A stretch of 50,290 nt of DNA from Candidatus Nomurabacteria bacterium (GTDB lineage Bacteria; Patescibacteriota; Minisyncoccia; Phycocordibacterales; UBA9973): contig JAHFNJ010000007.1 of the NCBI GenBank assembly GCA_023267375.1, positions 1 through 50,290 of the forward strand, written 5' to 3'. Below, in pieces: positions 31,795 through 45,340 of the stretch. A program made the position numbers and the translations under genes. The notes under the pieces are model-generated. The model had not been told where the DNA came from. It saw nothing but the letters and a program-made list of their open reading frames with translations, and ran no database searches. How positions within the stretch are numbered: position 1 is the stretch's first letter; each line of letters starts with the position of its first letter.

Positions 31795-31960
31795 GGCAGG
31801 AATCTTTCGTTACACGAACAGTATACCTTTTCCATGATTTTGAACAGAAGTTCAAAATCATAAGGAAAAGCTTTTCGATTCCTGACACAAAGTGCGCAGG
31901 CACTTTGTTCCGGGCGCACATATTAAAAAGACCGACATATAGTCGGTTCATTTAAATATG
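31795..31960 (-). repeat. tRNA-Lys-linked mirror element
   Basis: Inverted copy of the tRNA 3' half (31874-31884 plus 31910-31924) split by a 25-nt hairpin (31885-31909); distal sense copy GATTCCTGCC at 31795-31804. Confidence 0.75.
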
Positions 31961-32033
31961 TGCGCCCGGCAGGAATCGAACCTGCGACCATCTCCTTAAA
32001 AGGGAGCTGCTCTACCGACTGAGCTACGGGCGC
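31961..32033 (-). tRNA. tRNA-Lys (anticodon TTT)
   Basis: Cloverleaf: GCGCCCG/CGGGCGC acceptor, anticodon loop CTTTTAA, GGTTCGATTCC T-arm; CCA not encoded. Confidence 0.95.
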
Positions 32034-41033: not shown

Positions 41034-41127
41034 ATATAGTACAGAGCTTATCATTTTTAGGGGTGGTGGCAAAGGGCACGCCCTTGCTAAATCTCAATTT
41101 TAGTGTAGATTAGTAAGGTGTTTAGAA

Positions 41128-41199
41128 GGCTCCGTCGTTCAATGGATAGGACGTAACTTTGCGGAAGTTATGATGCAGGTTCGATTCCTGCCGGAGTCA
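41128..41199 (+). tRNA. tRNA-Arg (anticodon GCG)
   Basis: GGCTCCG/CGGAGTC acceptor, TAACT-TTGCGGA-AGTTA anticodon arm, GCAGG-TTCGATT-CCTGC T-arm; CCA not encoded. Confidence 0.92.
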
Positions 41200-41409
41200 C
41201 TAGTACAAAAATGAGCCGTCTCGAAAGAGGCGGCCATTTTTGTTTAGTGACTCCGAGCGAGCAAACTGCTTTGCTCGCGTGCAGGAATCGAACAGCGGAG
41301 TCATGTTTTGCAAGCTTGCAAAACAGACGAGCTGGTGCCCAGACAAAACTTTTTGACGAAAAAGTTTTAGTCGAGGGCGATAAGCGTACTCGCGGTCCTG
41401 CCGGAGTCA
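41200..41409 (+). repeat. tRNA-Arg-linked mirror element
   Basis: Inverted copy of the tRNA 3' half (41245-41255 plus 41281-41293) split by a 25-nt hairpin; 51-nt core 41294-41344; sense copy TCCTGCCGGAGTCA at 41396-41409. Confidence 0.85.
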
Positions 41410-41418
41410 TCAGGGCTT

Positions 41419-41446
41419 CAAAAAAGCGCCCTCGGGCGCTTTTTTG
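41419..41446. terminator. Bidirectional terminator
   Basis: CAAAAAAGCGCC-ctcg-GGCGCTTTTTTG. Confidence 0.85.
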
Positions 41447-41460
41447 GATTCTATTTAAAT

Positions 41461-41925
41461 TTAAAATCCTAAGAAATCCATGATTCGATGTGACGCAGGT
41501 TCATCCATTTCTCGTTCTTTCATTTTTTTAAGAAGTGAGGTCTGGACCCGTTTCCAGTCAGCATTTCCTAGGGGGAGTGTGACGAGAGGCATAAACATGC
41601 GATCTGTTTCGAGGATAAGCTTGGGTTTGCGGTCTTTTGCAACAATTGCAAAACTTTTTATATGTTTGTAGTCATACGTGTAATGACTCACTTTCACACC
41701 ACGTTCAGTTATTTCAAAAGTCACTATTTGTGGCTTGCGGACACTATAGACAACAAGAAGTGAGACAGCAACCACAATGAAAACAGCAAAAAGAAAATTG
41801 CCGTAGATGATCGAAGCAACAACGGTACAAATTCCGATAATCCCAAGTGCCCAAAACCAGTCGGGCGACTTTGGTCGATCCTCATATTCAAGTGCTTCCC
41901 AGCTGATATGATCTCCAAATTGCAT
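41461..41925 (-). CDS. Membrane protein, DUF5673-like
   Basis: ISWEALEYEDRPKSPDWFW, two TM segments, then a PH-like soluble domain. Confidence 0.65.
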   Translation of the reverse strand: MQFGDHISWEALEYEDRPKSPDWFWALGIIGICTVVASIIYGNFLFAVFIVVAVSLLVVYSVRKPQIVTFEITERGVKVSHYTYDYKHIKSFAIVAKDRKPKLILETDRMFMPLVTLPLGNADWKRVQTSLLKKMKEREMDEPASHRIMDFLGF

Positions 41926-44447: not shown

Positions 44448-44945
44448 TTACTTAGAAAATTTTCGGTAGATTGCGATCAGTTTTTTCTCTAATTGTTGCG
44501 GTGTTTTTTCTTCGTTTCTAAAAGACAGGTGAGGGAAGTCGCCAATACTCTCCCAGTTTTTCTGTATATATGTATCAAGCAGGGTGTGAGTGAAAAAGTG
44601 TCCTTTGCGGTTTTTTATTTGTGATAGATGTTTTGTTTTTGAAGTAGTTACTCGAATGAAAACAATATGTTTTTTAAATTTTTTTAAGAGAAAATTTCTC
44701 GATGTGCTATCTGGTAGGGAGTCAGTAATTGCACTCTCTTTTTTCAGAGACTTTAGATACTTTGCTATTCGGGTGAGTTTTTTGAGTCGGTCTTGTTTAG
44801 TGAATGTTCCTGCGGCAATTTTTTTCTTCTCTGTTGCAAGGAGGAGCGAATCGCCGTTAATATAAAAAACATCAGCCACTTTTGCGAATTTTTGTGCAAT
44901 GTAATCTTTCCCGACACCAGGGTATCCAAAAAACCAGTAGATCAT
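44448..44945 (-). CDS. P-loop kinase, gluconokinase/shikimate-kinase-like
   Basis: GYPGVGK Walker A, INGD, RKGHFF...LLD; start MIYWFFG at 44945. Confidence 0.65.
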   Translation of the reverse strand: MIYWFFGYPGVGKDYIAQKFAKVADVFYINGDSLLLATEKKKIAAGTFTKQDRLKKLTRIAKYLKSLKKESAITDSLPDSTSRNFLLKKFKKHIVFIRVTTSKTKHLSQIKNRKGHFFTHTLLDTYIQKNWESIGDFPHLSFRNEEKTPQQLEKKLIAIYRKFSK

Positions 44946-45065
44946 ACTGACAGGGTAGCATGAAAATGGAGGAATTAAAGAGATTCGCCCGCGACTAAAA
45001 AATCGCCGAAACAGGATGAGATTCTCCCCGTACCGGGGCAGTACAGGTTTCCGAAAAAATAATAC

Positions 45066-45253
45066 AGCGAGATTCGCCCGCGACTCTCGCCTCGTCGTCA
45101 CTCAGCTCGGTCTGGGCACCAGCTCATCTGTTTCGCAAGCTTGCGAAACATGATTCCGCTGTTCGAATCTCACACGCGAAGTGCGCAGGCACTTCGCTCG
45201 CCTCCGCAAACAAAAATGGCCCCGACCAAAGTCGGAGCTCATTTTTGTATTTG
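45066..45253 (-). repeat. tRNA-Ser-linked mirror element
   Basis: Inverted copy of the tRNA 3' half (45161-45173 plus 45199-45210) split by a 25-nt hairpin; 51-nt core 45110-45160; short distal sense copy 45069-45076. Confidence 0.85.
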
Positions 45254-45340
45254 CGGAGGCGGTGAGATTCGAACTCACGGTCCACTTTCATGGACGACAG
45301 TTTTCAAGACTGTTGCCTTAAACCACTCAGCCACACCTCC
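45254..45340 (-). tRNA. tRNA-Ser (anticodon TGA)
   Basis: GGAGGTG/CGCCTCC acceptor, G discriminator, ACAGT-CTTGAAA-ACTGT anticodon arm, long variable arm; CCA not encoded. Confidence 0.95.

Follow-up and report, generated by a model that had tools for sequence, protein, structure and literature searches.

For IS608 it is established that a guide sequence beside the foot of a hairpin pairs with the cleavage or target site. Integration into tRNA genes leaves a standard signature of its own, in which one complete and one partial tRNA copy surround the insert (PMC9897764). At the tRNA-Arg gene studied here, a complete gene and a partial distal copy enclose antisense copies of the tRNA 3' half and a structured core. 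We found that the pairings at this gene belong to one copy of a widespread, apparently undescribed structured element of about 200 bases, which in ultra-small bacteria (CPR/Patescibacteria) is sited where tRNA genes end on their 3' side. In the window, by which we mean the whole stretch of 50,290 nucleotides that was analysed, all three tRNA genes (Arg, Ser and Lys) carry the same layout on their 3' side.

The tRNA-Arg unit and its counterparts in the window

An earlier, sequence-only reading of this DNA had reported two inverted repeats, a direct repeat and two terminator-like hairpins at tRNA-Arg. Repeat search, terminator scan and inspection of the sequence recovered every one of them in its place. 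The parts of the unit are as follows.

41128-41199/41200, plus strand: tRNA-Arg(GCG) gene (ARAGORN; Rfam tRNA, 59.9 bits)
41179-41202, plus strand: proximal sense block, the tRNA-Arg 3' half from G53 to the trailer CTA
41205-41243, plus strand: tip module ACAAAAATG-A-GCCGTCTC-GAAA-GAGGCGGC-CATTTTTGT (terminator scan)
41245-41255, plus strand: antisense of acceptor 3' strand, discriminator and trailer, TAGTGACTCCG (repeat I6, 11/11)
41257-41278, plus strand: hp1, a 9-bp hairpin with a CTGC loop (all 9 pairs covary)
41281-41293, plus strand: antisense of T-stem 3' strand and T loop, GCAGGAATCGAAC (repeat I5, 13/13)
41293-41334, plus strand: P3, first core hairpin, CAGC/GGA/GTC/A/TG-stem-loop-CA/GAC/GA/GCTG (RNAalifold, pair counts)
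41335-41337 plus neighbouring base, plus strand: GGTG joiner between P3 and P5
41338-41377, plus strand: P5, second core hairpin, CCC/A/GAC-stem (GAYG loop)-GTC/GM/GGG (RNAalifold, pair counts)
41381-41395, plus strand: optional insert forming a mini-hairpin, TAAGCGTACTCGCGG, which separates the distal copy from the core end GGGCGA
41396-41409, plus strand: distal direct copy TCCTGCCGGAGTCA, tRNA positions 60-73 (repeat D2, 14/14)
41417-41448, plus strand: strong intrinsic terminator downstream of the distal copy (stem of 14 pairs, then a T run)

The repeat search matched 41179-41191 to 41281-41293 (I5) and 41192-41202 to 41245-41255 (I6) as inverted repeats without mismatch, and 41186-41199 to 41396-41409 (D2) as an equally perfect direct repeat. 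hp1 is inserted into the antisense block precisely where acceptor and T stem meet, and the anti-T part of that block extends to tRNA position 53, which is 3-7 nt past the 5' end of the distal copy. The foot and internal loop of P3 are invariant while its outer stem covaries, and the covariance model R1 matched the unit at 41253-41383 with 149.5 bits. The mini-hairpin insert is also present in two other loci (L005 and L008), with variants in four more (L011, L014, L025 and L028).

The tip module forms the apex of a long palindrome and contains a bidirectional terminator-like hairpin (41215-41234) of 8 pairs followed by CATTTTTGTT, which passes the terminator scan; within the window the module recurs only at the Ser unit. 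The scan returned 6 terminator-like sites against 1.5 expected. We infer that the terminator at 41417-41448 is the original terminator of the tRNA-Arg gene; it also serves the convergent ORF at 41461-41925. Open reading frames overlapping 41168-41483 were found to be spurious frames across the hairpins, and the unit contains no gene.

The two other units in the window lie on the minus strand.

45069-45340, minus strand: second family-A unit, with tRNA-Ser(TGA) (gene 45253-45340; R1 140.7 bits at 45071-45201)
45210-45248, minus strand: Ser unit, tip
45199-45210, minus strand: Ser unit, anti-acceptor
45176-45197, minus strand: Ser unit, hp1
45161-45173, minus strand: Ser unit, anti-T
45120-45161, minus strand: Ser unit, P3
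45077-45116, minus strand: Ser unit, P5
45069-45076, minus strand: Ser unit, distal copy, reduced to CGAATCTC
31795-32033, minus strand: family-B unit, with tRNA-Lys(TTT) (gene 31960-32033; R1 28.7 bits, E 9e-6, at 31800-31912)
31923-31955, minus strand: Lys unit, tip
31910-31923, minus strand: Lys unit, anti-acceptor
31887-31908, minus strand: Lys unit, hp1
31874-31885, minus strand: Lys unit, anti-T
31827-31870, minus strand: Lys unit, long hairpin
31805-31826, minus strand: Lys unit, motif GTATACTGTTCGTGTAACGAAA
31795-31804, minus strand: Lys unit, partial distal copy

Spread of the family and constraint on its core

Further loci were retrieved with a 21-mer of the core, and the layout was found in 41 CPR loci beyond the window (15 genome and 26 metagenome loci). 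The order was the tRNA 3' half, the tip hairpin, the anti-acceptor, the 9-bp hairpin, the anti-T arm, the two-hairpin core and the second direct copy, in gene-less units of about 170-250 nt. Every unit found with the 21-mer lay on the strand of the tRNA, on the 3' side of a tRNA or a fragment of one. Units occur at 13 or more isoacceptor types, and a single core family serves at least 13 tRNA types, with the antisense and direct blocks matching the local tRNA at every unit. The proximal copy, running from T loop to trailer, completes the tRNA gene, and the tip hairpin is a terminator in about two-thirds of units. At every unit the sense block, tip and antisense block add up to a palindrome. 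A covarying 9-bp hairpin splits the antisense block in families A, B and C; family D is without hp1. Between the anti-T arm and the proximal tRNA there are 12-14 Watson-Crick pairs, with zero mismatch in most units. The antisense block extends to position 53 in 22 of 25 units, and distal copies begin at tRNA positions 56-60, inside the T loop. Decay of the distal copy is frequent while the gene-completing copy is intact (for example at the window Ser and Lys units and in L005), and the core stays intact where the distal strand of the closing helix has decayed.

A census of 53 tRNA genes provided the background for these matches. The upstream flanks reached maxima of 7 for the anti-acceptor, 9 for the anti-T and 8 for the direct copy, and the downstream flanks often gave 11-15, 11-17 and 13-20, respectively. 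Against this background, the repeats at tRNA-Arg are far beyond chance. About a quarter of the tRNAs that were unselected for having a unit carry one. Furthermore, contigs of the source metagenome break off at these repeats.

Searches of the window and three units against Rfam 15, at the gathering threshold and at relaxed E-values, returned tRNA only. Hammerhead, twister-sister, HDV-like and group I architectures were rejected by eye, as the junction strands GAAC, GGTG and MGA mismatch their cores, and Rfam agrees. No matches were obtained by blastn in phage and plasmid collections, and all matches of core motifs in IMG/VR were chance ones within coding sequence, accompanied by neither a tRNA nor an R1 match. 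We found no description of the element in the literature, and about 0.45 Mb of loci contained neither an autonomous gene-carrying version nor a core split around an ORF. Groundwater metatranscriptomes of the same study had no contigs over the region. Family members were found in contigs of small soil and wastewater metatranscriptomes, at a depth similar to that of the adjacent tRNA; these contigs are unstranded and may contain DNA.

When 28 units were aligned over the core, 97.9% of cells were paired compared to 80.3% in shuffles, and the covariation score was 0.502, against 0.162 for shuffled and at most 0.094 for slid controls. Double changes occurred at 22 of the 37 pairs, and in hp1 all nine pairs covaried (99.2% paired). 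The core of about 100 nt keeps about 40 invariant positions across MAGs labelled Parcubacteria and Saccharibacteria, and its two hairpins share invariance of feet and junctions. We looked for kissing complementarity between the hp1 loop (CTGC) and the hp2 loops, and inspection revealed no consistent covariation. At pair 49/77 of the core alignment GC was counted 20 times, GU five times, AU three times and AC never, and because of this wobble-pair polarity the data point to constraint on the core in single-stranded form, with the polarity of the tRNA and not of the minus strand. The polarity is taken from fixed-column counts, since at P5 the minus-strand fold adopts other pairings, which makes G-U counts from separately folded hairpins ambiguous there. 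R1 likewise favoured the plus strand (149.5 bits) over the minus strand (18.4 bits), and the internal loops are purine-rich on the plus strand (GGA/GA and GA/GA).

The earlier reading had proposed that the antisense block pairs either with the tRNA 3' half or with the distal copy. Folding reproduced these mutually exclusive pairings and showed the two states to be a conserved property of the family. In minimum free energy folds of the read-through transcript, the 5' acceptor strand of the tRNA was paired with the distal copy in all ten units that have an intact distal copy, and this closed fold was 8-21 kcal/mol better than the cloverleaf plus the separately folded remainder. In each of the ten, the T and acceptor stems of the tRNA close the insert in the predicted fold. 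For the Arg unit alone, the predicted energy is -78.5 kcal/mol on the plus strand, in a fold that pairs its ends, and -74.6 kcal/mol on the minus strand. A tRNA-like look had also been read on the minus strand. The string GACTCCG ... GTTCGATTCCTGC ... CGGAGTC-A-CTA is indeed there, but it is simply the reverse complement of the antisense tRNA copies. The closing helix does have tRNA-like acceptor/T-stem geometry.

Turnover at orthologous tRNA genes and its possible explanations

Comparison of orthologous tRNA genes showed gain, loss and exchange of units as well as their stacking in tandem. Syntenic tRNA-Ser(TGA) genes carry a unit in the window and in L055 and none in two other relatives (L056 and L057), where the next gene begins 62 and 41 nt past the tRNA, respectively. 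The orthologous tRNA-Arg(GCG) of L053, reached via a 154-aa neighbour, has a nearly identical tip module but a family-B core, and its antisense and distal blocks follow the T-stem and acceptor changes of its own tRNA. Tandem arrays were found in five loci (L006, L012, L026, L039 and L046), with a B unit followed by an A unit at tRNA-Arg(GCG) in L026. An empty tRNA-Arg site was sought through synteny with pyrC and was not found, the relatives at 73-80% identity having other genes upstream of pyrC. For tRNA-Ser, no empty site with a matching downstream flank could be demonstrated, as none of the four genomes compared shares its gene content 3' of this tRNA with another.

Our best reading, held at even odds, is that the unit is a non-autonomous structured insertion element that targets the tRNA T loop, and that the Arg region is one copy of a superfamily of small, gene-less insertion elements in the T loop and 3' half of CPR tRNA genes. 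Such a unit would have entered the T loop near positions 56-60. The proximal copy with its terminator would then be a replacement 3' end that makes the insertion harmless, and the distal copy would be the displaced original tRNA 3' end. The antisense block would span the insertion point by 3-7 nt, its GAAC pairing with the universal GTTC, and may serve as an internal guide or clamp through which the element recognises its tRNA target; as a single strand it could hold both element ends next to each other on the tRNA T stem. The two-hairpin core might be a module recognised by, or acting as, the mobilising activity, which would be supplied in trans or by the nucleic acid itself. Candidate activities are an HUH/Y1-type single-strand transposase, a tyrosine recombinase acting on folded single-stranded DNA, and reverse splicing at the RNA level. 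The predicted empty tRNA-Arg allele reads CCGGAGTCA followed by TCAGGGCTTCAAAAAAGCGCCC. The analysis turned up neither a mobilising enzyme nor an excised form or circle junction.

Some features sit uneasily with insertion. Invariant junctions together with freely covarying stems across distant CPR lineages resemble an old functional RNA. A further difficulty is how the antisense blocks would be rewritten for a new tRNA with hp1 kept; hairpin-templated gene conversion and deletion within tandem arrays might account for it. In L053 the tip was apparently inherited with the locus while the core was exchanged, which complicates the idea that units simply move as wholes.

A bolder form of the insertion reading, which we regard as possible and hold tentatively, is a self-contained 'programmable' mobile nucleic acid whose antisense of about 24 nt, lying across the insertion point, would guide it to its tRNA. 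It would be either a new ribozyme-like intron entering the T loop by reverse splicing or a protein-assisted single-stranded DNA element. Here the spare tRNA 3' end and terminator would neutralise the element's own insertion, and the three-way-junction core would be its catalytic or recruiting module.

It is rather unlikely, though deserving of weight, that the unit is instead a structured non-coding RNA used by the host, made by read-through of the tip terminator and acting on the cognate tRNA or on tRNA-binding enzymes. The 5' antisense and 3' sense blocks would form an acceptor/T helix closing a three-way junction in which hp1 replaces the tRNA body; RNase P and RNase Z could trim it, and its role might be sequestration, sensing of 3' fragments or that of a decoy. 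Strong covariation with invariant junctions, the plus-strand polarity, the ends-paired fold of the plus-strand unit and the purine-rich GA-type internal loops, which are typical of RNA motifs, all agree with such an RNA, as do antisense blocks that follow tRNA changes at orthologous loci. The soil and wastewater contigs would fit as well, at a depth like that of the adjacent tRNA, but their lack of strand and possible DNA content weaken the point, and the groundwater metatranscriptomes showed nothing. In about two-thirds of units, however, a terminator separates the tRNA promoter from the core, and no promoter-like signal of the unit's own was seen. Core families are interchangeable at one tRNA, and an intact core frequently stands beside a closing helix whose distal strand has decayed, as in the window Ser and Lys units and L005. 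The tRNA-Ser(TGA) genes of two relatives are without a unit.

Inert attL/attR scars, left by integrase-mediated integration of a phage or ICE and subsequent decay at tRNA genes, are improbable. Direct repeats of the tRNA 3' part that begin in the T loop, tandem arrays and variable regions 3' of tRNAs (compare PMC9897764) are what such scars would leave, but a 100-nt core in which 22 pairs covary and about 40 positions are invariant would not survive in scars, nor would scars have the target in antisense at so precise a place, and we saw no integrase remnants and no similarity to any phage or plasmid record.

The sequence-only reading had suggested an attenuator-like timing switch; antisense pairing with the tRNA 3' half or with the distal copy would then control maturation or termination of tRNA-Arg transcripts. 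Both pairings are stable and mutually exclusive, and two terminator-like hairpins (41215-41234 and 41417-41448, plus strand) bracket the unit. We nevertheless consider a switch very improbable: the downstream ORF (41461-41925) is convergent and no co-oriented gene follows the unit, the distal copy is truncated or lost in the window Ser and Lys units, family D is without hp1, differing core families occupy the same tRNA, and the orthologous tRNA-Ser(TGA) genes of two relatives work without any unit, so that the unit has no part in making that tRNA. The other suggestion of that reading was that the minus strand yields a tRNA mimic of about 165 nt on which RNase P and the CCA-adding enzyme act. 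This is scarcely credible, for although that strand reads GACTCCG ... GTTCGATTCCTGC ... hairpin ... CGGAGTC-A, folds nearly as stably and shares the bidirectional tip hairpin, ARAGORN and Rfam call a tRNA solely on the plus strand (41128-41200), the informative pair 49/77 (GU 5, AC 0) and the R1 scores favour the plus strand, the T-stem partner strand lies about 100 nt off with a hairpin between T stem and acceptor, unlike any tRNA, and no room for a promoter is left between the terminator at 41417-41448 and position 41409.

Significance and relation to known systems

CPR/Patescibacteria genomes are tiny and streamlined, yet a sizeable share of their tRNA genes bear units. The family is either a very successful selfish element that inserts harmlessly into essential genes or an unrecognised class of tRNA-matched RNAs. 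A structured core between antisense and sense tRNA copies suggests a natural target-matched, possibly guide-directed, insertion; if the guide-directed mobile reading is true, CPR bacteria would have a new class of insertion system of their own, and if a mechanism is found its interest could equal that of bridge RNAs or OMEGA systems. In addition, the partial tRNA copies and long palindromes of the units break assemblies and can confuse tRNA annotation.

Among tRNA mimics (the tmRNA domain, YrlA Y RNA and mascRNA) the unit has counterparts for its 5' and 3' ends, which form an acceptor-like helix on a T-like helix, for its discriminator base and for its single side arm. Unlike in these RNAs, the T loop is replaced by a 100-nt core and the helix sequence is copied from the neighbouring tRNA instead of being fixed; the Rfam tmRNA and Y-RNA models were unmatched.

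IStrons and group I introns in tRNA genes (PMC4227781) share with it a harmless insertion and an internal guide that pairs across the junction with both flanks, and the single-stranded fold is likewise a closed domain within a tRNA loop. The unit differs in having a spare 3' exon and terminator in place of splicing, and in using the T loop and not the anticodon loop. It has no Rfam group I core even at E up to 10, no G-binding site and no U.G at the putative 5' junction, where the pairs are C-G or U-A.

With CTX-phi/IMEX attP sites and integron attC sites the topology is shared, in that a target copy, short loop, inverted copy, cargo and target copy follow one another. In both, a hairpin rebuilds the duplex target, the tip is variable, one arm has an extrahelical feature (here hp1), an element-encoded recombinase is not needed and tandem arrays occur. 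The target here is a tRNA gene, however, and not dif or attI, and the cargo is a conserved 100-nt structured core and not genes. Direct reading showed no XerC/D arms and no R/L boxes, the arms being tRNA sequence; GTTCGAT and ATCGAAC only come near the R boxes and stand in the opposite order, and R''/L''-L'/R' boxes with the GTTRRRY crossover are absent.

The IS200/IS605 family and the gene-less PATEs offer another analogy, drawn from what is established for IS608. The possible resemblances are strand specificity and fixed orientation, two hairpins with similar conserved feet (GTC/GAC), a guide beside a hairpin foot, and an insertion that would adjoin a short conserved motif (the T-loop GTTC) without classical target duplication. 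Nothing, however, links the two hairpins of the unit to a Y1 transposase. In contrast, no TnpA/Y1 gene or homologue is in view, IS605-related Rfam motifs were unmatched, the left 'end' would sit about 115 nt from the hairpin, and the 'guide' has at least 24 nt and is complementary to the element's own spare tRNA end.

Islands, prophages and ICEs in tRNA genes, with tyrosine-integrase att sites of T-loop sublocation, also insert in the tRNA 3' half and regenerate the tRNA from element-borne sequence (PMC9897764). Their far-end partial direct copy begins in the T loop, and they show tandem accretion and presence or absence among relatives. Unlike them, the unit is about 200 nt long without an integrase or any other gene, it carries its target in antisense and has a core that covaries as a single strand, and one core family ranges over at least 13 tRNA types.

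Units 3′ of tRNA genes in the window and in related genomes

The three tRNA genes of the window were called by ARAGORN, with agreement from Rfam. The sequence-only reading had listed inverted repeats, a direct repeat and two terminator-like hairpins 3′ of tRNA-Arg, and our repeat search and terminator scan confirmed all of them.

Features in the window
31960-32033, minus strand: tRNA-Lys(TTT)
41128-41200, plus strand: tRNA-Arg(GCG)
45253-45340, minus strand: tRNA-Ser(TGA)
41179-41191 and 41281-41293: perfect inverted repeat, 13 nt
41192-41202 and 41245-41255: perfect inverted repeat, 11 nt
41186-41199 and 41396-41409: direct repeat TCCTGCCGGAGTCA
41215-41234 and 41417-41448: terminator-like hairpins

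The palindrome proved longer than had been described. The first hairpin was prolonged by ACAAAAATG / CATTTTTGT (41205-41213 / 41235-41243), so that 41179-41293 forms one long hairpin whose sole interruption is the 22-nt side hairpin hp1 (41257-41278). Within the window, its tip module (ACAAAAATGAG...CATTTTTGT) was found only at the two units with a family-A core. The usual bacterial tRNA-Arg anticodon is ACG, read as ICG; the GCG anticodon of this gene recurred in L023, L026, L041, L046 and L053, suggesting that several CPR loci decode CGY without A34-to-inosine editing.

We found that the flanks of tRNA-Ser and tRNA-Lys repeated the order of parts seen at tRNA-Arg, each made from the sequence of its own tRNA. 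The tRNA is followed by the tip hairpin, the acceptor 3′ strand and trailer in antisense, a CTGC-looped hairpin of 9 bp, the T stem and T loop in antisense, the structured core and, last, an incomplete direct copy of T-loop/T-stem sequence. The layout is not peculiar to tRNA-Arg. The Arg and Ser units had a common core, AGCGGARTCATG-hairpin-CAGAYGAGCTGGTGCCCAGAC-hairpin-AGTCGMGGGMGA, with compensatory hairpin differences. About 90 nt past the Ser unit lay an orphan second copy of the core 3′ end and T-loop copy (AGTCGCGGGCGAATCTC, 44980-44996, minus strand), followed by TTTAATTCC, which is similar to the 3′ junction of the unit in the related locus L055 (..GAATCTCATTTTAATT); this copy was probably left by an older unit. 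A listed 217-aa ORF (44448-45101) crosses this copy, and the true start of this P-loop kinase-like gene is therefore probably the internal MIYWFFGYPGVGKD.

When a 21-mer of the core was searched in a species-representative genome collection and in metagenomes, it matched 15 genome loci, all from MAGs, and 26 further metagenome loci. Eleven of the 15 were named as Patescibacteria lineages (Taylor-, Yonath- and Lloydbacteria, Minisyncoccia and 'Saccharibacteria'). At every locus found, a tRNA gene or the 3′ fragment of one stood ~100-130 nt 5′ of the core on the same strand, and both the antisense and the direct blocks fitted that tRNA; at least 13 isoacceptor types carried units. Among 53 tRNA genes surveyed in the loci examined, upstream control flanks scored no higher than 7, 9 and 8 in three matching tests, and scores of 11-20 were frequent in downstream flanks. 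Units were also present at ~7 of ~26 tRNAs that had not been the reason for fetching a locus. Other core families were built on the same logic as family A.

Core families other than A
Family B: window tRNA-Lys, L009 tRNA-Trp, L012, L026, L053
Families B′ and C: L012
Family D: L039, L006; hp1 absent, antisense copy continuous

The family-A covariance model also detected the other families at lower scores, had no match in the control loci and, across the whole window with filters off, matched only the three tRNA-linked units. A family-A unit in L042 (3577-3821, minus strand) had ~45-50-nt inserts in the hp2 and hp3 loops, both finishing with an identical GAAGTACTCTTGTGGTGC motif; they represent either a small nested insertion or an expansion segment that the hairpin tips tolerate. 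ARAGORN labelled two unit-bearing tRNAs 'Stop(tta)' (L008 4637-4712) and 'Pyl(cta)' (L031 637-708). The L008 anticodon loop was identical to that of the window tRNA-Lys(TTT), so at least the former label appears to stem from a register artefact, not from a suppressor tRNA.

Conserved structure, strand and pairing geometry

Alignment of 28 family-A units with RNAalifold and explicit pair counting supported hp1 and the two core hairpins, P3 and P5. Paired cells reached 97.9% (80.3% after shuffling), the covariation score was 0.502 (0.162 shuffled, at most 0.094 for slid registers), double compensatory changes occurred at 22 of 37 pairs, and ~40 positions in hairpin feet, internal loops and junctions were invariant. 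The informative pair 49/77 was GC in 20 units, GU in 5, AU in 3 and AC in none, the tRNA-strand internal loops were purine-rich (GGA/GA, GA/GA), and R1, the covariance model from family-A units, scored 149.5 bits on the plus strand and 18.4 on the minus strand. These results indicate that the functional form is a single strand of tRNA polarity; the data do not tell RNA from single-stranded DNA. The element is conserved, covarying, strand-specific and tied to tRNA 3′ ends. The heptamer GCGAAGC, as DNA an unusually stable mini-hairpin, formed the palindrome tip or a mini-hairpin before the distal copy in L010/L044, L011, L012, L030 and L025/L028, which could point to a form made of single-stranded DNA.

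The antisense block mirrored the proximal copy (the 3′ half of the tRNA gene itself), trailer included, as far as the tip, and its T part formed 12-14 Watson-Crick pairs with the tRNA, with zero mismatches in most units. Pairing with the second, distal copy was weaker, and distal copies were often truncated. The antisense block extended to tRNA position 53 in 22 of 25 units and the distal copy began at positions 56-60, so the block overlaps the junction by 3-7 nt, with its GAAC opposite the universal GTTC. Full read-through sequences of ten units, all with an intact distal copy, were folded. In all ten predicted folds the tRNA 5′ acceptor strand paired with the distal copy and the intervening 180-210 nt formed a closed domain, 8-21 kcal/mol better than a cloverleaf with a separately folded remainder (−148.5 versus −128.9 to −130.8 for the window Arg unit). 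Hence the mutually exclusive pairings first noticed at tRNA-Arg are a designed-in property of the family. The folds predict that the single-stranded unit would act like a T-loop insert with both ends juxtaposed.

Gain, loss, swap and stacking, and possible expression

The element undergoes gain, loss, swap and stacking. At the syntenic tRNA-Ser(TGA), upstream of DUF5652 and RuvX, a unit was present in the window and L055. L056 and L057 had none: R1 gave no match there, and 62 and 41 nt, respectively, separated the tRNA from the following gene. Thus the element, which incorporates sense and antisense sequence of its local tRNA, is dispensable for that tRNA. Gene content 3′ of this tRNA differed in all four genomes, and the region is a hot spot for recombination or insertion; the genes directly 3′ were P-loop kinase-like, a 153-aa membrane protein, ART-PolyVal-like and an unknown 193-aa protein.

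L053 carries the orthologous tRNA-Arg(GCG), with neighbouring proteins 71-80% identical to those of the window. Its tip module was almost identical, with two compensatory changes; its hp1 was unlike that of the window unit and its core belonged to family B. The two tRNAs differed in T stem and acceptor, and the L053 antisense and distal blocks tracked those differences. The L053 tRNA-plus-unit segment was inverted relative to the neighbouring gene; the inversion is against a conserved 154-aa gene and the pyrC-pyrF operon (L053 3460-4060 and L048, contig Ga0210607_10596713, versus window 41072-41461). A ~4-kb block of three genes (FGE-sulfatase-like, NAGPA, GT2 glycosyltransferase) lay between unit and pyrC only in the relative. 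Tandem arrays were found in several loci. L026 had B then A at tRNA-Arg(GCG); in L012 the tRNA 3′ part occurred three times in direct orientation and the flank recurred past the last copy; L006, L039 and L046 held further arrays. Tandem gain followed by deletion between direct repeats would yield the observed mosaics.

The source groundwater metagenome held many related copies, with core depth 5-15 times flank depth, and the repeat family fragments CPR assemblies. Around 41164-41400, source contigs (runs X1-X3) stopped at the tRNA 3′ end (41193/41194) and in the core (41344). Nothing was found over the unit in the source-study metatranscriptomes. Small soil and wastewater metatranscriptome contigs, unstranded and possibly including DNA, contained members of the family, covered about as deeply as the tRNA beside them, and expression is plausible, at least by read-through from a strongly transcribed tRNA gene.

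A candidate insertion element and its relation to known systems

The best-supported model, which we give about an even chance of being right, is an insertion element that lacks genes and targets the T loop. Its proximal copy and terminator would substitute for the tRNA 3′ end, so that the tRNA gene would remain intact, and the distal copy would be the original end, displaced; in the Arg unit it is followed by the apparent original terminator. The antisense block may serve as guide or clamp across the insertion point, and the two-hairpin core, with pseudo-symmetric GTC/GAC feet, may be recognised by the mobilising activity or itself be that activity. In IS200/IS605-type single-strand transposition a guide lies beside a hairpin foot and base-pairs to the cleavage site, without target duplication; in CTX-phi/integron-type recombination a folded single strand mimics a duplex target for a host recombinase; intron-like reverse splicing is directed by an internal guide sequence. 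All three would have the right topology and are candidates only. Neither the loci examined nor IMG/VR scans yielded a mobilising enzyme, an excised form or an autonomous copy.

Junctions invariant across distant lineages favour the main rival, an ncRNA used by the host and closed by a tRNA-like helix, but the terminators, decayed distal strands and empty orthologous sites speak against it, and we regard it as rather unlikely. An inert scar is contradicted by specific results and is improbable. The attenuator-like switch of the sequence-only reading also conflicts with specific results, the tRNA-Ser(TGA) sites without a unit among them, and is very improbable; its minus-strand tRNA mimic, contradicted by the R1 strand scores, is scarcely credible.

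No Rfam 15 family matched the element, nothing similar appeared in phage and plasmid records, and full-text literature searches turned up no description. Islands integrated in tRNA genes keep the gene intact by a comparable strategy (PMC9897764), and IStrons render insertions harmless through splicing (PMC4227781), a likeness in spirit. The element has single features in common with tRNA-integrating islands, PATEs, IMEX/attC sites, IStrons and tRNA mimics, but misses at least one defining feature of each. Tentatively, it could belong to a new kind of mobile nucleic acid, one directed by a guide; conservatively, we group it with site-specific insertion elements, as a variant not described before.
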